From Chrysomallon squamiferum (lineage: Eukaryota > Animalia > Mollusca), in assembly GCA_012295275.1 (NCBI GenBank), contig CM022669.1:4402001-4466000 (forward strand): a stretch of DNA of 64,000 nt, in the 5' to 3' direction. The notes under the pieces are model-generated. The model saw only the letters and a program-made list of their open reading frames with translations, had not been told where the DNA came from and made no database searches. Below are positions 2,790 through 16,800 of the stretch, piece after piece. The position numbers and the translations under genes were made by a program. Within the stretch, counting starts at the first letter, position 1. Every line of letters starts with the position of its first letter.

Positions 2790-3690
2790 TACAGCAGCCG
2801 GATAACAAACAGTTCATCAGTTATATTTGTCATATAATGTTTTGTCGAAAGTAACGTTTAATTCTGGAATCTGTTGTTGGTTTTCTCTACAGATTTTTGT
2901 GGCAGACACAGAGCCGGGTTATCCACCTCCAAAACCACCAGAAACCAGGAAGAAAGATATTTTCAAAATAGAGGATTATCAAGATATCGAAGTGAAAGCA
3001 AAACATGTTAGAGTCTTGTTTATAAGATATGGAATAACCTCAATTCGACACGTCTGTTTTATGTGTCTGTATATGTGGTGTAATTTTATGTATGTATTTA
3101 TGTCTGTGTATGTACATATGTATGCACGTTTTATGAATGTATATGAGTGAGCGTATGTCTGTATTTATATAGTATGATTGTGTATGGAAGTCGCTTTTAT
3201 CGTTATTATGGTTTTTATCGTGTTGCTATTTTTATGCTGATAATAATAGTTACTGTTTTCCTTATACTTATTATTATCATTATTACAGGCTTCGCAAGAT
3301 GACGCCTCCACTTACACGTCACTCGTAAACTATCTCACCTCAGATTTGAAGACAGATCTTCAGAAATTTAGGTCTATTTTCGTGTGGCTGGGAAATCAGA
3401 GAATCTACAACATGTCGTATCCTGACGTCAAAAACCGAAACACACCCAGAGGCTACATGAAACTAATAAAAAATCACATACGGTCGTACACATCATTCTT
3501 TGCCCTCCTTTGCAGGTATGTATTGCATTGTAATTGTCGTAAAGTTTCTAGAAGTATAATTTAATTAGTAATATAAAAAGAAATAAAAGTATTTAAGATC
3601 CCAAACAACCGGGCAAACAGTCGGTTACTGAAAATGTGTTCTTAAGGGGAAGTCCGTTAACTATCTATCTGTAGGTATGTCTGTCTGATT

Positions 3691-3704
3691 GTGTGTGTGT
3701 GTGT

Positions 3705-3785
<81 letters not shown>
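3691..3785. repeat. (GT)n(CT)n microsatellite
   Basis: Read directly; lies in an intron of copy 1. Confidence 0.95.
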
Positions 3786-3787
<2 letters not shown>

Positions 3788-4451
3788 ATTTATTCATTTA
3801 TTCATTTAGAGCATCCAAAATTCCGTGTGTTCTAATCACAGGACATTTCAAGGATACAGAGTTTGAAGTTGGCGATACAGACCTTAGTCACCACTACTCT
3901 GCCTGGAATGCTGTGTATGTAGATTATTCCTGGAGGATTGTCCACCCTTTCTGGGCTTTCACAGGAGTAGTAGGGCACGAAACGGGTCGATGGACTTTAA
4001 TAGAAAACCAAGGAAAAGGCGCAAGGCAAAAGCAACAAAAATCAGAAGGAATGCACAAAAAGATGTCAAATAATCCAGAATATGCCTTGGAAATCAACGC
4101 CAAAGAGAAGGGTTCTCTAGGTCAATTTGAGAACGTCTGTAACTACTTGATTTCTTCTGATCAAAAGGAATGGGCAAATGTATCAACGAATGAGGTAAAT
4201 GGCTATTGTTCATATTTGAGTTTCTTTCTTTTTATGATTGGTTGCAGTGGTTATTTATTTTGGTACAGGCTTATTTTTTCTTTCTTAATTTGTTTTTAGT
4301 TTCAGTTTTATTTTCCTTTTATTTGCCTTTTAAAGTGGACAAACAGAAAGGACAATGCAGTGATAGTTACCATATATTTTACTTCATTATTTTATTTAAA
4401 CAAAAGATATTCATTCATATAAACATGTCTGTATCTATAAAGAACAGGTAA

Positions 4452-4560
<109 letters not shown>

Positions 4561-5035
4561 AATAGATACATACATATTATTATATAAATAATTATGTGTA
4601 TGTGTGTAGGAGTGTGTTTTTCTGTATTTGTCTGCCTTTATGTGTTTATTTCAGAAGAGAGAGAGAGAGAAACAGAGAGAGAGAAAGAGATAGAGAAAAA
4701 AATGACAGAGACACAGAGAGAGAAAGAGAGAGAAAGAAAGAAAGAGAGAGACAGAAAGAGAGTGAGAGTGAGAGAAGAGAGAGAGAGTTACATATTATAC
4801 ACACATATAGTAAACATACAGTGAGAGAAGGAGACAATTCGACACGTTGATAAGTACATTCAGACTTTGTAAAGACATATTCAACTTTAAGATTGTGAAA
4901 AGAAAGCTGATCAAGGAAACTGAAGGTGACGACATAGAAGAGCTAGAAAAGACTGAACAGCAGCATGACGAAGAACTGACAGCTGCGAAAGAAAGGCTCG
5001 TTGAATTACATCTAAACCGTGAGTAGTGTGTAAAT

Positions 5036-5221
<186 letters not shown>

Positions 5222-5919
5222 CTTCCCTGTCTCTAAAGATACAGACATCCAGATAGACTAGTGGCAGAAAGATATTTGTGTGTATTTGTGTGTGTGTTTG
5301 TTAGTATATATGTGCACATAGAGAGAGAGAGGGAGAGAGAGAGAGAGAGACACACACACACACACACATACACACAGACACACAGGTCGAAAGAAGTATA
5401 GATCAGGGAAAATAGATATATTACGTTGTCTTTCTGTTTTCTGTTTTTCACAAGGTGTGAAAGAGGCCTCGAAGAAAAGAGATCTTCCTGAACTGAGCGA
5501 CGCTATTTACAGCGCCGAGAACTCGATCTCTTCACAGATGATCGTCAACTCAGATACCATGAATGAAGCTCGCCAAGTCCAAGAACAGCTGAAGAGACTA
5601 AAACTGTTTCTGCATAAAGTAGTCGAACTAAAACAAGAAACTGTGTCTGAAATACACAGCTACAACCGGCCGAAGAGAGTCATTCATGACGTGATGAAAG
5701 CGACATATCTCATTCTAGGAGAAAAAGAAAAAAACTGAAGGTAAGCTCAGTCATTGTTCATTTTTCTTGTTATGTAATTGAGATTTTCTTACTTACACAT
5801 ATATGTATATATACACACATTTAGATTGGAAAGCGCAAAAGTCTATTATATATACATATATTTTATTTTCAACGTCAGTGTAAACATAAATACGTATTTG
5901 TATCTGTCTCTCTTTTTTA

Positions 5920-5954
<35 letters not shown>

Positions 5955-8900
5955 GTGTGTGTGTGTGTTTGTTTACAGAATACAGTATATTTACGCTAAG
6001 AGTATGTTGAAATGATTTATTTAATATTTCTAGAAGTGGAAGTACGTACAGACTCTGTTGAGACGTATCGGAAAGGACAGTATTGTTACACGTATTAAAG
6101 ATTTTGATATTGTGAGGTTGTCAATCCCTTCTGCTAAACGAGCCGACATTTTGCTTAACCAGTACAAACTTGTTGACGTCAGACAACACAGTGCAGGGGC
6201 CGGCACATTTTACGTCTGGGTAAGTTTTTGATATTAACACTAAAAGAGATTATCAGTCTCATCCGCGCTCTAGTTCCGCCACCGGTCCTAAAGAATATCT
6301 TTGGTGATACTAACAAATAGTACAGCCTAATTAAGACATGGATAACCATTTTCGAGAAACATGGCTCATTCTTCAGACAGGCTGTACTACTAATAAACAT
6401 TATTTTCATCCTGAAAATAGAATTGTCTTTCAGAAAACACAGCGGGCCCCAATTTTCCCATGACTGTCCTAAATATTCACTGCATATTTCATTGTAGTCT
6501 TAGGATAGAGTTGGCTATAAGGTCCCCTTGGGATAAAAAGCCCACTGGCTTTATAGCGAAGTGTACATATGAACTGAAACCAGAAACTACATCATAAGAT
6601 TCCACTGACGTCGTAGATATATTCATCCTGTACCACGAAACTTCACTTCTAACTCATGTAAGTGTTTTATGAAATTTCGAATATTTGACAGATTCGTATA
6701 ATATTTTGTATTCGTGTTTTAGGTTAAAGAATGGTCACGTACTCACAAAGTACTGTGAAGTTAGGAAGGGATGTATTGACTTTATGTTTAATAACTTGTT
6801 TTTGGTTTGTAACAGAATAATTGATGGTGCATTCATTAAAATTTCGCCTAAAAGGCCCCATTACAAGATATTATTCTTTTATAAATGTGAGTGTTTTATT
6901 ATATTCGTTTAATGTCACAAATACACTAAATCAGTTCCTCTGTTCATTAATTATATTTACTGCTCAAAACGGGGAAAAGTTGCTAAATGTGATATAAAAT
7001 ATATAATATTTTCCTTAAGGGACGCTTTTACCCAATGCTATACTATATTTATTTTTTACATCTAGTCTTAATTTTTAATGAAGTATAGATAGGATCGAGT
7101 AAATCTTGAAAAATATCAGAGTGTAATGACGCAGTTCAGATGTTTTGTATCAGTATTATTTTATGATGAGGAAAAAAGGTCCAAGATGTGAATTATAATA
7201 AATTTCATTTGACCATTTGTAGTGTCAAATGTTCATACTTTTAGTCTCGTAGTTAAATGGATCAAACGTCATTAACTACCCACTAATTGCCAAATATTGG
7301 AATCATTAGAAAGAGAAGAAAAATAGACCATAAGGATTATGATTGCAGCAGATTAGACTGGTTCTAAGTTTCATTTATAAAGATGACTCTTGAAGGGAAG
7401 TAACTCACAGAGAATTGCAGAGTTGAACGAATAAAAGCGTCCTTTCTATAGATTAATATGTTTCTGAAAATATTAAACATTGTAGATGTAAAATAGATTT
7501 TGTTTTGTTTTATTTTGTTTCATTTCATTTCTTTATTTTTTATTGATATGTTTGTATTTATTTGTTTGTTTGTTTGTTTATTAATTAATTAATTTATTTA
7601 TTTATTGATAAATATTCTATTTTTTATTTGTTTCCAGAGTAACAACATAATAAGTGAAAAGATTAGAGAAGTGTAATTTTGAACAGAGAATGGAATCAAT
7701 ACAAGACTACAGTTATGTTCTTTTTCTTTGGACGAATTCAACTACAGCAGAGAAAATCGACAAAAATGTAGGATATTTAGTCACGGTTGACTGACGTTTT
7801 GTGATAAAGATGCGTAGATTACTGTCGATTAAATACTTTAATAAGTACTGTACCAAGGAAGTTTATACACTATATATAATTACACTTTACTATACTATAG
7901 ATAAAGCAATGTACATCACTACGAGAGACTTGTTATAAAATAATACTTAGAAATTATAATAAATTGTATTTTTTGTTGTTGTGGGGGTTACTACAAGTTG
8001 AAAAACTAAAATTTTGAAATAATTTCATATTGAATCAACATAAAGTGATGTTTTGAGTGTGTAGGTAAACTGAACCAAGACTCTTCTAATTAGCCACTTC
8101 GTTACATAAATCCGGTTATTTTATATTTGTGTGTATATTGTCACATTGTCTGTGTGTTTGTATCATTATATAAAGGAAAGTTTAAGATACATATTTTCAC
8201 TGTGATACAAGCGATGATGTGTATTGTTCATCATTAGAACTAGGAAAAATACTACAAGTCAACAAAAAACTGAATCAGACGGAGTTACGTCCCTTCAATC
8301 ACACTGCATTAAAAACATTTTGAAACTGATCAGACACTATGAACAGGCCTGTTCGGATACGTAATTTAAAAAATAAGCGCTCCATTGCCTCATGTTTTTC
8401 AAGATGATATAAGTTTTATTATTAAAGAAAAAAGAAGAGAACTTTGCTCGGCACAAGAACAGAATCAGAGTGCACCTGTCACCCATTCTCAGGCAGATCA
8501 GTTACAACACTGAGTAACTGTCCATTGTGTTTGTTTCACTGTGCGTTGAGGCTTTGTTTATTGAAATAAGTACTCTTAATTCAGGTCACGTACTCTTTGT
8601 TTGTGTTGGTGCTTATGTAGAAGTCATATCTAATCATAGATATTATCTTGAAGATATTTCGTTATTTACTTCCTCGTTTATTTGTTGTCGGGAAAGGATT
8701 GCAGTATTAATTTAGATTTCAAGCTTCAAGACTTGTTGCCAGACATTTAACAAGTGGATCGTGTAGTAATACTGTAAGTTTATCACAAAACGTTTTTGAA
8801 TCAATTTAACAGTGAAATATTCACGTTAAGATATAACAAAGAATTTAAACAGAAGAGCCAAATGTCACAATTTATACGCAAAACACTTAAAGAGACAGAC

Positions 8901-9449: not shown

Positions 9450-10180
9450 GCAAGTGTAGTGCACCCCCTAACCCGTGGCAATTTATCCATCCCCGAACCT
9501 CTTTCACTAGTCCACTAATGAAGCTAAGAATTCTGCGACCGAGGTAACCGCCCTTGTGGCCCCTCCCACGCTCCACCCCTCGAATTTAATAACTACATGA
9601 CTGAAACAATGGCTTCACGACAGCTTAACATAATTAATTTAATATCATTGAATCTATCCCTTTTTGTTTTAAATATTATATTTCATTATATTGGTCTTAA
9701 TGAAAGCATATAGACCCAGTTCTGTCACTTCTAATTAAAAAGATTTATATATTTATCTTTGCATAGGCGACGGAAACATAAAACATCTATTGACACATGG
9801 TGTAAAAGATTATTACTCAACAACAGTTGTATTTTAAATCCTCGATCGCTGTCTACTATCACCCGGACATATTCGATCACGTGATCTACTTCAGAAAAAC
9901 AAATAATAAGCGTTTTTCTCGGAATCAGCCTATCTTGACTGGACCTGTCGTTGATCTTCGTATTTATCTCTGAGTGAAAACACATTATTCAAGTGGTTGA
10001 CGGTTAACAAGGAGGTGCGTCTCGATTTTATTTCAAAGTTAGACAAACTTCGATACACTTCGAGACAGTTGTCTTACAGTTACGTGCTGTAAGTATTAAG
10101 TATAAATTCAGGTTTGTGTATATTATTATTGTTATTATTGTTTTAATGATTACTATTAATATTATTATTGTTATAATTAA

Positions 10181-10266: not shown

Positions 10267-10303
<37 letters not shown>

Positions 10304-10372
10304 ATCAGTCTGCAGACTGGTGATACCCATAATTTAGAATATTTTAATAATTATATTTTAGGTTGACAGAAA

Positions 10373-11398
10373 ATGGGATGTGGAGCAAGCAAGTCTACCC
10401 CTGTTGTGGACGAAGACGACACAGATATAGATTTTGTAAGTAGCATGTTTTGATGCAGTCGTTATTATTATATTTTTTCTTTTTATTCTAAAACAGACGA
10501 ACAAATGGTCTAAAAGAACATCATATACTTTCCAGTTCTTATTTATTTTTTGTTAGTAAAACAGAAAGTAATATATAAAACAGAAAATTTGCGAGGATTC
10601 ACATATGCTGACGTCTTCTTCATTTAATATGATGTCATTACATAGTAATCTTGTCTTTAGTAATGTCTCACAGTATTTATTATACCGGTGATATTTTACA
10701 GTACGAATACACTATATCAGTGACATTTATTACATATGCTATAGCAATAGTATTACATAGGACATATTTTACATAAACTATGCCAGTGATATTTGTTACA
10801 TATTCTATATCAACAGCATTTCATTTGACATATTTTACAAACACGATTTCAATAGTATTTCATATGACATATCAGTGATATTTGTTACATATACTATATC
10901 AATATAGTTTTATATGACATATCTTACATACACTGTATCAGTAGTATTTCAAATGACATATCTTACACTAAATCAATAGTATTTCATATCAAATATCTTT
11001 CATATACCATATGAATAGTATTTCATTTGACATACCTCACATACACCATGACAGTCATATTACACACTGCACATAATAAACACACACTATATCAGTAATA
11101 TTTTACAGCAGCCGGATTACAAACAGTTCAACAGTTATATTTGTCATATGATGGTTTGTCGAAAGTAACGTTTAGTTCTGGAATCTGTTGTTGTTTTTTT
11201 CACCAGATTTTTGTGGAAGACACAGAGCCGGGCTATCCACCGCCAAAACCACCAGCAACCAGGAAGAAAGATATTTTCAAAATAGAGGATTATCAAGATA
11301 TCGAAGTCAAAGCAAAGAAGGTAAGAATCTGGTATATAAGCTATTGATTTACCTAAAAAGTACTGATGTCTTTTAGGTGCCTGCTTTAATGTAAAGTA

Positions 11399-11431
<33 letters not shown>

Positions 11432-13680
11432 TGTATGTATGTATGTATGTTACTGTTTTTCTTATAATAATAATACTTATTATTATTACAGGCTTCGCAA
11501 GATGACGCCTCCACTTACACGTCACTCGTAAACTATCTCACCTCAGATTTGAAGACAGATGTTCAGAAAGTTAGATATATTTTCGTTTGGCTGGGAAACC
11601 AGAGAATCTACGACATGACGTATCCTGGCGTGAAAGACCCAAACACACCTAGAGGCTATATGAAACTAATAAAATATCGTAAAGGGTCGTACCCGTTATT
11701 CTTTGCCCTCATTTGCAGGTATGAACACACTGTAATTGTTTAAATCATACATAAATATAATTTAATTAGTAATATTAAAAGAAATAAGGAAACAGGAAGT
11801 GTTGATTCCGAAAGAAACGGGCAAACACTTAAATACTGAGAATATATTCATAAGGGAAAGTCCCTCTGTCTATCTATCTATATATATCTGTCTGGATGTT
11901 TGTCTCTCTGTCTATATATCTGTCAGTTAGTCTATAAATCTATCTATCTATCTATCAATCCATCTATCTATCTATCTGTCTGTCTGTCTGTCATCTGTCT
12001 GTCTGCCTGTCTGTCTGTCTATCTCTCTCTATCTATCTATCTCTATCTCTATCTGTCTGTCTGTCTGTCTGTCTGCGTGTCTGTCTGTCTCTGCATATCA
12101 GTTTATCTATCTATCTATATATCAGTCTGTCTGTGTATCTGTCTGTCTGTCTACCTGTATGTTTGTCTCTGACTGTGTGTCCGTCCGTCCGTCCATCCGT
12201 CCATCCACATGGCCTAACAGTCTGTCTTATTGTGTGTCTGAATGTTCATCAGCAATTTTCTCTCTCAGGGCAGCCAACATTCCGTGTGTTATAATCAGAG
12301 GCAAAACCAAAGGTCTAGGGTTTGAAGTTGGTGACACAGACATCAGTAACCGCAACTCTACCTGGAATGCTGTGTATGTAGATCAGTCCTGGAGGATTGT
12401 CCACCCTTTCTGGGCGTTCACAGGAGTGGTAGGGCACGAAACGGGTCGATGGACTTTAATAGAAAACCAAGGAAAAGGCGCCAGGCAAAAGCAACAAAAA
12501 TCAGAAGGAATGCACATTTATCATCGTAATGAATTTTATTTTCTCACCAATCCCGATGAGTTTATTTATATGTGTATGGCTTCCGAGAAAGAATGGCAGC
12601 TGTTACCATCGTCTTGGACTGAAGCTGATTTTGTTCGAGTTCCTATGTTTTCAGAATCTTATTTTTCTTCTGGCATAAAACTAAAAAGTGAAAATATTGG
12701 AGTAAAGAAATCTAAAGAAGGCTTAGTCAAGATCAGCTTTAAGATGCTTACAGAACGTCTACTAACTTACAAGTTGTTGTTTGACGAAAAAATGTCAGAA
12801 GAGAAACTGCCAAAAGACGTCCAGGCAGACTTGTACGTTTTACAGAACAACGAAGACAAAATAAAATCATTTATCATTCGCTTCCCTGTACGAGGTATTT
12901 ATAAGATGGAAATCAACGACGGCTTGTGTAACTTCAGGCTCGATTGTGATTCAATGGGGAAAAATACAAATCCTTTCCCAACAAATCCAGCAATAGGATT
13001 CGGCTACAATTTGAAAGCTGCAGAAGCAGGTTTGACTCAACCTTCCGTCAAAAACGGTATTGTTATCATGGACTGTGGTACGGTGAAGAAGTTCCAGTTC
13101 AAAAGCATCAAAGAACTGGAATTTCAGGTTTTTCTTAAACATTACTCGAAGGTTGTACAAAATCTTGAAGAGTTTATTAATGTGGAGCAAAAGGGTGAAA
13201 ATGTCATTGTCACTGTGACAATGCCAGACAAAAACGTGTCAAATAATCCAGAATATGCCTTGGAAATCAACGCCAAAGAGAAGGGTTCTCGAGATAAATT
13301 TGAAAACGTCTGTAACTACTTGATTTCTTCTGATCAAAAGGAATGGGCAAATGTATCAACAACGAAGGAGGTAAATTGCTATTTTTCATATTATACACAT
13401 GTATAGTAGACATACAGTCAGAGAAGGAGTTAAATCGAAACGTTGCTTCGTACATACAGAGTTTGTAATGACATATTTAACTTTCAGATGGTGGATGCTA
13501 AAACAAAGCTGATCAAGGCAACTGAAGGTGATGACATAGAACAGATAGAAAAAGCTGTACGGAATTTTGTCATGTCTCGGCAGCATGATGAAGGACAACT
13601 GACAGCTGCGAAAGAAAGGCTTGTTGAATTACATCTTGTTGAACTACATCTAAAACGTGAGTCTCTCTCTCTCTCTGTGT

Positions 13681-13735
<55 letters not shown>

Positions 13736-13935
13736 CTCTCTCTTGTTGTATCTCTCTCTCTCTCTGTCTCTCTCTATCTCTCTCTGTCTCTACCTCTCTC
13801 TCTCATTTATAAGCTGAAAACATAGAAGTTATGATACTTCCGTCATCAACACTGTTAGAAAGATGGTTAAAATGAAAGAGATGCACAGAGAGTCAGACAG
13901 CCAGACGGACAGACAGACAGATAATTGTTGGACGG

Positions 13936-13986
<51 letters not shown>

Positions 13987-14546
13987 GTAGATATATGCAC
14001 AGAGAGAGACACACACACACACACACACACTCACATCGATAGAAAGATAGATCAGGGAAAAATGATATAGAATGTTGATTTGACCAAAGTTCTTTTGTTT
14101 TCTGTTTTTCACAAGGTCTGAAAGAGGCCTCGAAGAAAAGAAATCTTGCTGCATTGAACGACGCTATTGACAGCGCCGAGAACTCGATCTATTCAAGGAT
14201 GATCGTCAACTCAGAGACCATGATTGAAGCTCGCCAGGTCCAAGAAGTGCTGAAGAGACTAAACCTATTTCTGCATAAAATAAGCGAACTAAAACAAGAA
14301 ACTGTGTCTGAAATACACAGCTACAACCGTCCAAAGAGCCTAATTCATGACGTGATGAAAGCGACATATCTCATTCTAGGAGAAAAAGAAAAACAACTGA
14401 AGGTAAGCTTAGTTATGCTTCGTTTTCGTTGTTATGTAATTCAGATTGTTCTTACTTTCTTACAGTAATTGTTTACTTGTTTGGACATTGTGTTTTGTAC
14501 AGACATTTGTATATCAAATAGAATAAGAAAAAGGCAAGCACACACT

Positions 14547-14587
<41 letters not shown>

Positions 14588-15432
14588 GCATTTAGAGAGG
14601 GCTAGGAGGATGTTGAAATGATTTATTTATTATTTCTAGAAGTGGGAGTACGTACAGACTCTGTTGAGACGTCTGGGAAAGGACAGTATTGTTAGACGTA
14701 TTAAAGAGTTTGATATTGTGAGGTTGTCAATCCCTTCTGCTAAACGAGCCGACATTTTGCTGAACCAGTACAAACTTTTTGACGTCAGACAACACAGTGC
14801 AGGAGCCGCATCATTTTACGTCTGGGTAAGTTTTTGATATTAACACTAAAACAGATTACCAGTCTCATCTGCGCTCTAGTTACGCCAACAGTCCTAAAGA
14901 CTATCTTTGGTGATACAAACAAATAGTACAGCCTAATTAAGACATGGACAACCATTTTAGAGAATCATGCCGCATGGGAACGTGGCTCATTCAGGCAGGC
15001 TGAACTACTTATAAACTTTATTTTCATCCTGAAAATAGAACTGTCATTCAGAAAACACACTGCAGGCCCCAGTTTGCCCATAACTGTCCTAAATATTCAC
15101 TGCATATTTCATTGCAGTCTTAGGGTAGAGTTGGGTAAAAGGTCCCCTTGGGATAAAAAGCCCACTGGTTTTGTAGTGAAGTGTACGTATGAACTTAAAC
15201 CAGAAACTACACCATAAGACTCTATTGACCTCGTAGGTATATTCATCCTGTACCACGAAACTTCACTTCTAACTCATGTAAGTGTTTTATGAAATTTCGA
15301 ATGTTGGACAAATTCGTATAATATTTTTTATTCATGTTTTAGGTTAAAGAATTGTCCACGTACTCACAAAGTACTGTGACGTTAGGATGGGATGTATTGA
15401 CTTTATATTTAATAACTTGTTTTGATTTGTGA
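10373..15432 (+). CDS. KY (kyphoscoliosis peptidase)/hillarin/LTD-1-like transglutaminase-fold protein, copy 2, ~745 aa, with N-terminal MGCGAS and C-terminal dynein-MTBD-like module
   Basis: Phase-consistent exons 10373-10435 (MGCGASKSTPVVDEDDTDIDF), 11207-11320, 11492-11718, 12269-13370, 13488-13656, 14116-14402, 14640-14825, 15343-15432, total 2238 nt. KY/hillarin-type motifs: KVRYIFVW, FALICRAANIPCVIIRGKTKG, TWNAVYVDQSWRIVHPFW, NEFYFLTNPDEFIY, WQLL, FPVRGIYKMEI. The last exon is the least certain. AATAAA at ~15500. Confidence 0.88.
10685..11105. repeat. Degenerate ~25-40-bp minisatellite in the first coding intron of copy 2
   Basis: Repeated CAYACTATATCAGTRRTATTTCATATGACATAT-type motifs. 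Confidence 0.75.
11865..12205. repeat. (TCTA)n/(TCTG)n/(TCCG)n compound microsatellite
   Basis: Read directly. Confidence 0.9.
12269..13370 (+). CDS. Large internal exon of KY-like copy 2 (transglutaminase-like core plus beta-rich region)
   Basis: Lies within the 415-aa ORF 12159-13406; bounded by ctctcag| and |gtaaat. Confidence 0.92.
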
Positions 15433-16800
15433 CAGAATAGTTGATGGTGCATTCATTAAAATTTCGCATAAAAGACCCCATTACAAGATATTATTCTTCA
15501 ATAAATGTGAGTGTTTTGTTATATTGGTTTAATATCACGAATACACAAAATCAGTTCCTCTGTTCATAAATTATAATTACTGCTCAAAACGGGGAAAAGG
15601 TGCTAAATGTGATATAAAATATATAATATTTTCCTTAAGGGGAGGCTTTTACCCAAATCTATACTATATTTATTTTTGCCATCTAGTCTTAATTTTTAAT
15701 GAAGTATTGAGAGGATCAAGTACGTCTTGAAAAATATCAGGGTATAATGATGGAGTTCAGATGTTTTGTTTCAGTATTATTTTATGGTGATGAAAGAAGG
15801 TCCAAGATATTCAGATAATATCTAGGAATTATATTAAATTTCATTTGACCATTTGTAGTGACAAATGTTCTTGTTTAGTCTCATAGTTATATGGATCAAA
15901 CGCCGTTATCGACCAACTAATTGCCACATATTAGAATCATGAAAAAAAAAAAAAATAAATAAAATTTCTTCGTACATAAGGATTATGAGTTCAGCGGGTT
16001 AGACTGTTTCTCGGTTTCATTTATAAAGATGACTGTTGAAGGGAAGTAACTCACTGAGAATTGCAGAGTCGAACGAATAAAATCGTCCGTTCTATAGATT
16101 AATATGTTTCTAAAAACATTAAACATTGTAGATGTAAAATAGGTTTTTCTTTATTTTATTTCGTTTCATTTTATTTCTTTATTTTTTGTTGATATGTATG
16201 TATTTATTTGTTTGTTTGTTTGTTTATTAATTAATTTATTTATTTATTTATTTATTTTTTTGATAGTTATATATTTTTTATTTACATATTTTATTTTTAG
16301 AAAACGATGTTTGTGTTATTTGTGGCTATATCTTATATACCTATCTGTCTATCTGTCTATCTCTCTTACTATCTATCTATCTATTTATCTAGTTATATTG
16401 TGCTAACGAACATTTTATTTTTTATTTATTTCCAGAGTAACAACATAATAAGTGAAAAGAATAGAGAAGTGTAATTTTGGACAGAGAATGGAATCAATAC
16501 AAGACTACAGTTTTATTCTTTATCTTTGAACAAATTCAACTACAGCAGAGAAAATTTCTAAAAACGTAGGAAATTTAGTCACGTTTGACTAACGTTTTGT
16601 GATAAAGATTCGTAGATTACTGTCGATTAAATACTTTAATAAGTTCTGTACAGAAGAATTTTATACACTATTTATAATTGTGATTAAATATATTGAACAT
16701 AAAGCAATGTTCATCACTATGAGAGACTTATTATTGAATAATAGTGAGAAGTTACAATAAAGTGTTTTTTGGTTATTTTATATTTGTGGGTATATTGTCA

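Follow-up and report, generated by a model that had tools for sequence, protein, structure and literature searches.

The question raised by this locus is whether an animal protein can carry a dynein heavy chain's microtubule-binding domain (MTBD) without the motor and, if so, what such a protein would be doing. The gene in question lies in a 64,000-nucleotide stretch of Chrysomallon squamiferum DNA (assembly GCA_012295275.1, contig CM022669.1, positions 4,402,001 to 4,466,000), here called the window, which is AT-rich and microsatellite-rich. An earlier note, made from the letters alone, had read the gene as an acylated pseudo-transglutaminase fused to a stand-alone MTBD and had proposed it as a membrane-to-microtubule tether. 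We find that the tail of the encoded protein is a true homolog of the dynein MTBD; that the whole protein is a static membrane-to-microtubule tether, in which a lipid-anchored KY/hillarin-like scaffold carries a motor-less MTBD, is a reading to which we give an even chance. The coding exons, in window coordinates, are as follows.

10373-10435, plus strand: exon 1, start MGCGASKS with predicted N-myristoylation (G2) and S-palmitoylation (C3)
11207-11320, plus strand: exon 2, proline-rich GYPPPKPP motif, kept in relatives
11492-11718, plus strand: exon 3, first half of the transglutaminase-like core; K123 at the position of the catalytic Cys
12269-13370, plus strand: exon 4, remaining transglutaminase-like core (S165 at the His position, H180 at the Asp position) and KY-like Ig domains
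13488-13656, plus strand: exon 5, helical repeat 1; a 15-nucleotide duplication (LVELH twice) absent from the RNA contigs of paralogues
14116-14402, plus strand: exon 6, helical repeat 2, a short CC1-like helix (14220-14279) and MTBD helices H1-H2 (14280-14402), including E624
14640-14825, plus strand: exon 7, MTBD helices H3-H6 and the beginning of a CC2-like helix
16436-16474, plus strand: last coding exon, SNNIISEKNREV and stop; a 12-residue CC2 stub, no stalk

A single open frame runs across seven GT-AG exons from 10373 to 14825, and because an in-frame TGA stands upstream at 10364-10366, the ATG at 10373 is the start. A probable 5' untranslated exon reaching to 10111 on the plus strand was also seen, in that the loose letters of an RNA contig at 10364 match those of 10084-10111, after which comes a GT donor. 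Four public runs overlap the stretch (X1-X4), all of them as contigs, and three of these are RNA from one study. The joints 13370>13488, 14402>14640 and 14825>16436 (GT..AG) each occur in all three RNA runs; the X1 contig across the last of these shows 3 differences in 409 letters and extends to 16694, and a spliced X1 contig elsewhere shows 0 differences in 247. The pairs 1-2, 2-3 and 3-4 each have a single contig running across them, of this copy or of a paralogue, the first being spanned by an RNA contig of a paralogue, the second by X1 record 1 and the third by X3 record 13, both RNA contigs. The KY and MTBD exons belong to one transcript, since a 1,007-nucleotide RNA contig (X3 record 16) reads on from the KY exon into and across the two MTBD exons; this contig is of a close paralogue, with 53 other letters and 12 gaps over its four listed pieces.

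The MTBD-like sequence and the two helical repeats quoted in the earlier note are present in the spliced frame, and the correction that has to be made is at the 3' end, where the note had placed a last exon at 15343 giving an end in ...YVWVK. This exon was rejected: no joint to it was listed in the RNA search of the stretch covering 15343, and two runs continue 14825 with the letters of 16436. The RNA joints 14825>16436 thus fix the last exon at 16436-16474, which takes the end of the gene to 16474, beyond the coordinates first given to it. The protein is then 728 residues long and ends WSNNIISEKNREV, its C-terminus ...FYVWSNNIISEKNREV followed by the stop as in the hillarin-like orthologue of Gigantopelta aegis (P0001), with which the window protein shares 462 of 728 residues. 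Database searching with the protein gave 12 matches, of which the nine that are named are all molluscan.

The homology of the tail to the dynein MTBD was seen first in sequence profiles. A profile of 11 tails matched 59 PDB sequences at E<=1, and all 59 can be recognised from their name or length as dynein heavy chains or MTBD constructs (one of dynein length, 4,583 residues, is labelled RSPH9), the best being the yeast MTBD at E 1.1e-8. A second profile, built from 25 short family members, reached E 1e-11 with only dyneins among the matches listed, hhalign gave a probability of 92% to a dynein fragment, and the spliced domain of the window itself scored 67 against one dynein fragment, compared with a mean of 27.5 (standard deviation 5.0) and a maximum of 51 in 2000 shuffles. 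The first ESM Atlas match was a cluster auto-named after PF12777 (score 0.90; 50% of 76 members).

Structure prediction agrees. The tail of the orthologue P0001 was modelled (pLDDT 85.4) as a six-helix fold flanked by CC1 and CC2, and in the VIA search it superposes on a dynein MTBD with Z 15.1 and a root-mean-square deviation (rmsd) of 2.5 over 130 residues. Of the 14 chains that reach Z>=8, twelve are dyneins, and below these 14 the next row stands at 4.9; against 48,161 representatives there were nine at Z>=8, seven of them dyneins. VIA warns that Z below about 13 may be unspecific for helical folds, the background here being about 5. The 33 rows listed by Foldseek are all dynein-containing entries (TM 0.58-0.77), none of them at E<=0.001. 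As for affinity state, the models do not distinguish it, 3ERR (Z 14.9) and 6RZB (Z 14.7) being tied. The likeness that the earlier note had drawn from consensus motifs is thus borne out by both sequence and fold.

One could still suppose that the dynein likeness is a chance similarity of helical bundles or the product of a mis-joined gene model, and the Pfam and Foldseek results lend this some colour: no MTBD was found by Pfam on single exons, PF12777 matched 4 of 11 single tails with a best E of 0.01, below the Pfam cut-off, and the Foldseek values all exceed 0.001. Pfam misses the domain on single exons because it is split by an intron and diverged. This explanation is largely refuted, and we consider it very improbable, given profile values of 1e-8 to 1e-11 with dyneins only among the matches listed, a Z of 15 where unrelated rows stand at about 5, the hhalign result, the RNA contigs that join the exons, and the same architecture in named proteins of many species.

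The natural comparator for the tail is the dynein MTBD (PF12777; 3ERR, 6RZB, 6KIO) in its DNAH6-type form without the flap. The tail has the same six-helix order with CC1 and CC2 stubs and no flap, and it shares the invariant E (H1), P, LG, W (H3), S and W; it differs in having no AAA ring or stalk, in having mostly lost the H6 arginine and K3117, in a three-residue insertion with a basic patch at H3-H4, and in standing at the C-terminus of unrelated proteins. There is no stalk, because the CC1-like helix takes up about 20 residues ahead of the domain and the chain goes on for 12 residues past the last conserved Trp. No AAA family was found in Pfam scans of the exons and of 12 full-length relatives, so that the 728-residue protein is not a dynein heavy chain and, as had been claimed for it, has no AAA ring.

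The remainder of the protein is of another kind. PF23265 matches exon 4 (E 7.3e-24, two stretches, the best at about 12627-12980) and PF01841 is found in 11 of 12 full-length relatives, with E 5.9e-5 on P0001, and this transglutaminase-like core followed by KY Ig-like domains marks a KY/hillarin-like protein; relatives are auto-named hillarin-like. Hillarin proper has an N-terminal LIM domain and a septin partner, and no LIM domain was matched by Pfam on the exons or on the 12 full-length relatives, so the protein is not a hillarin in that sense; nor did Pfam find an SH3 domain. Among PDB entries the N-terminal part is matched best by FAP246, a central-pair protein and the nearest solved relative; from the KY/hillarin/LTD-1/Cyk3 group the window protein differs by its N-terminal acylation motif and its C-terminal MTBD. 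By KY spacing and the FAP246 alignment the Cys-His-Asp triad is replaced by K123, S165 and H180, in keeping with the pseudo-transglutaminase of the earlier note, and the full triad is kept in 0 of 88 related domains (94 rows, 6 dropped for gaps). Human KY, in contrast, has the triad C225/H267/D282, with cysteines at 236 and 243, in the available part of its description (PMC13434911). In Cyk3 the dead transglutaminase domain is a binding module, and Drosophila hillarin acts with a septin at the cleavage furrow, as far as the available text of two reports goes (PMC3718969, PMC3495828).

Two further elements frame this core. The start MGCGASKS gives MGxxxS at the true N-terminus, behind the in-frame stop, and fits the N-myristoylation consensus with a neighbouring Cys; starts of the form MGxxx[STAGCN] occur in 30 of 54 KY+MTBD representatives and in 10 of 90 other fusions. 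The motif is therefore present, and the acylation that the earlier note stated outright is a prediction from that motif, the N-terminus being predicted to be N-myristoylated and S-palmitoylated. Between the Ig domains and the tail lie the two helical repeats, which form helical hairpins in the orthologue model; in the ESM Atlas this spacer had nameless matches only, at 0.83-0.84, and no assignment followed. The full-length orthologue model has a pTM of 0.35, at which its domain arrangement is unreliable, with FAP246 and Ig domains taking up its Foldseek list.

The MTBD-like domain is not peculiar to KY proteins and is a widespread mobile C-terminal module. The tail profile found 1,604 representatives at E<=0.001, a count that may include pieces of dyneins; among the best 150 the longest has 1,861 residues, and Pfam on 135 of these 150 found KY Ig-like domains in 54 and a dynein AAA family in none. 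The KY fusions that are named belong to gastropods, bivalves, Lingula, Owenia and Branchiostoma, so that the phyletic survey proposed in the earlier note places the architecture in molluscs, brachiopods, annelids and amphioxus. Other hosts of the tail are CLCA/VWA and CD20-like proteins in amphioxus, an EGF protein in Saccoglossus, VWA proteins in tunicates and an EF-hand protein in the sponge Sycon, and by simple hydropathy a hydrophobic segment, a predicted transmembrane helix, precedes the domain in the CLCA/VWA, CD20-like, EGF and VWA fusions. Of 197 proteins, 135 have no more than 40 residues between the end of the domain and the C-terminus. Two Branchiostoma proteins (P0039, P0065) are CLCA-like, with a hydrophobic segment and then a long tail ending in the MTBD-like domain, and an amphioxus member of 764 residues is auto-named DNAH2.

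Six proteins (P0043, P0073, P0089, P0131, P0146, P0149), from metagenomes and a protist transcriptome set, carry two to six motor-less MTBDs in tandem, which lie nearer to dynein, with the H1 lysine kept in 24 of 29 and the H6 basic residue in 23 of 36. In a tree made by a quick method on 109 columns, 87 single C-terminal domains stand apart from 10 multi-repeat domains and one dynein with an SH-aLRT of 99; the tree is unrooted, its rows were picked by the tail profile, and the careful search was unfinished, so that one origin of the single C-terminal domains is suggested by it. We would extend the proposal, tentatively and at somewhat less than even probability, to invertebrates from sponges to amphioxus and tunicates, in which a mobile, ATP-independent and so far unrecognised microtubule-binding module of one origin from the dynein foot may stand at the C-terminal end of proteins that are lipid-anchored or span the membrane (KY-like, CLCA-like, CD20-like, EGF); these would form a class of membrane-to-microtubule tethers at the dynein/kinesin site.

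Motor-less chains with this fold are also found in solved structures, where the matches extend over most of the domain and have Z values above a background of about 5. Four of them are axonemal chains that are not dynein-sized: 7jtk_C from the Chlamydomonas radial spoke (Z 12.3, rmsd 2.3, 132 aligned), 7jrj_I from the recombinant radial-spoke head-and-neck complex (Z 7.1), 9fqr_Xl from the bovine sperm axoneme (residues 1335-1490, Z 10.1) and 9e5c_2e (Z 7.7). We take 7jtk_C and 7jrj_I to be RSP2; 9fqr_Xl might be EFCAB5, a guess from its length. The fifth, 9ya2_L (Z 9.2, rmsd 3.2, 121 aligned), is very likely Toxoplasma ICMAP2, as its 162 modelled residues fit a protein of 1,678 residues of which 10% is resolved. 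Neither 7jtk_C nor 9ya2_L is among the sequence-profile matches listed, which for the second profile comprise 60 of 66 rows. In the part of the ICMAP2 report available to us (PMC12819142), the globular domain lies on the microtubule surface, as a dimer between two protofilaments, and loss of the protein separates the two intraconoidal microtubules; the term MTBD does not occur in the main text of that paper. ICMAP2 thus resembles the window protein in having a motor-less MTBD fold, in its case tethering on the microtubule, and differs in its long insertions, its dimeric state, its microtubule-to-microtubule link and the lack of any sequence match found. The Chlamydomonas chain likewise shares the motor-less fold, but lies away from tubulin and has different partner domains. 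The MTBD fold therefore serves both on and away from microtubules.

In the tether that we propose, the acylated N-terminus would hold the protein at the membrane, the dead transglutaminase and Ig-like domains may bind cortical partners, as in Cyk3 and KY, and the helical repeats would provide reach. The tail would grip the microtubule, either by way of E624 and the basic residues near it, at the site that dynein uses, or at a different site on the lattice, and its affinity would be fixed and ATP-independent because there is no stalk to slide. The recurrence of membrane anchors, whether acylation motif or hydrophobic segment, across different fusions argues for such a role. The earlier note had named cortical or axonemal microtubules as the target, and nothing specific points there.

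Whether the tail could hold tubulin may be judged from the known contacts. Yeast dynein makes salt bridges to tubulin through K3117, E3122, R3124, R3152, R3159 and R3201 in the available text of PMC7042235; E3122 is described as the one acidic residue on the binding surface, where it pairs with alpha-tubulin R402 (PMC7042235, PMC4298687, each in part); the accessible portion of PMC4298687 describes E3122 and the H6 Arg as highly conserved and critical; and that of PMC6629372 counts helices H3-H4 in the tubulin interface. For the family we used 123 non-redundant domains, drawn from 205 well-covered rows, and for true dyneins printed alignments and papers, a search for dynein fragments having given one. 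A tubulin pattern had no match in viral contigs. The equivalent of E3122 is Glu in 123 of 123 domains, as invariant as the core Trp, and the R3124 position is K/R in 72%. A basic residue stands one position before the H6 site in 59% (R704 in the window protein), and basic residues at H3-H4 positions 73, 76, 81 and 82, a patch that is the family's own, are conserved at 71-82%. The H6 basic residue is R/K in yeast dynein, DNAH6 and two protist dyneins. DNAH6 is without both R3152 and R3159 and has Lys at the K3117 and R3201 positions, and the losses at K3117 and R3201 are therefore the real departures. The domain of the window has a net charge of +7. On the residues, then, the evidence for tubulin binding is mixed.

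Several observations weigh against the tether. Of the six residues that form salt bridges in yeast dynein the window protein retains only two (E624, R664), the others having changed (K3117 to Q619, with K618 adjoining; R3124 to H626; R3152 to E657; R3201 to Q705, with R704 adjoining). Across the 123 domains the K3117 position is K/R in 12%, and the R3201 position in H6 is K/R in 12% and D/E in 40%. The domains of KY fusions are mildly basic, with a median net charge of +2 (range -5 to +12), and the invariant Glu could be structural, Ser707 being 95% conserved. Tubulin is absent from the radial-spoke complex that carries the fold, and the ICMAP2 dimer sits between protofilaments, not at the dynein site. 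The structure model is of the orthologue's tail, not the window's own, and the exon 5-6 joint of the exact copy (13656>14116) was not found in RNA, where only the form without the duplication occurs.

These losses give substance to another explanation, in which the fold has been re-used for binding protein or acidic lipid without tubulin, and the protein works with septins, actin cross-linkers or Rho as a KY/hillarin/Cyk3-type scaffold of membrane and cortex. The H6 arginine and K3117 are lost across the family, the radial-spoke chains have the same fold with no tubulin, filamin C, septin and Rho1 are partners of known relatives (in the available parts of PMC13434911 and PMC3718969), and the family-specific H3-H4 basic patch may serve another ligand. 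However, the sole acidic residue of the binding face is invariant, the R3124 position is mostly basic, the losses of R3152 and R3159 tell little since DNAH6 lacks both, and one motor-less match, 9ya2_L, is on a microtubule. We regard the scaffold without tubulin as possible, though on balance doubtful.

The surroundings of the gene bear on a further alternative, that the family binds microtubules while the window copy, belonging to a tandem array that expanded recently, is relaxed and adds little. One neighbour lies upstream.

2893-7676, plus strand: upstream tandem paralogue, probably degenerate; tblastn 79-90% amino acid identity over most exons, blastn 78-89% over long matches

This paralogue has no exon 1, an in-frame loss of 717 nucleotides in exon 4 that removes most of the Ig-like part (PF23265 is absent from that exon), and a 1-nucleotide loss in an A-run of the MTBD exon that leads to a stop and may be a sequencing error. 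Adjoining it, at the place expected for exon 1, is an array, at 1-2790, of a repeat of about 627 nucleotides, in two inverted blocks 96-99% alike that turn near 1560. Over 10290-16780, X1-X4 contain many copies 90-99% alike, pointing to recent expansion of the gene family. Farther along, at about 28000-48200 on the minus strand, are exons of an alpha-2-macroglobulin/thioester protein gene, with TED, bait-region and MG2 matches.

The degenerate neighbour, the many similar copies in the RNA runs and X4, the private 15-nucleotide duplication and AGAASF in place of the consensus AGAGTF would all suit a relaxed copy. Against this, the 728-codon frame is intact with canonical splice sites, the copy keeps all the invariant MTBD residues (E624, P631, W656, S707, W716), and near-identical spliced RNA contigs exist in X1. 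That the window copy is a relaxed one is unlikely in our view, and the tether remains the reading that we carry forward.

Both halves of the protein are of known kinds, and the fusion and the animal MTBD module appear to be undescribed: no published description of the KY+MTBD architecture was found in a literature search, covered mostly at the level of listings, with subscription papers, including those on radial-spoke structures, lying outside it. Where hillarin comes up in two papers on molluscs, it does so purely as an annotation. The dynein MTBD has been treated as the inseparable tip of a motor, with an affinity set by sliding of the stalk. If our reading is correct, a large animal family with an MTBD and without stalk or motor, on proteins predicted to be membrane-anchored, would represent a new way of anchoring microtubules at the cortex, and it would offer a natural means of telling the MTBD residues that confer affinity from those that serve only for signalling to the ATPase. 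Microtubules would also come to be linked to the KY/hillarin scaffolds, which are poorly understood, and, taken together with ICMAP2 and the radial-spoke chains, the MTBD would be a stand-alone domain that has been re-used repeatedly.

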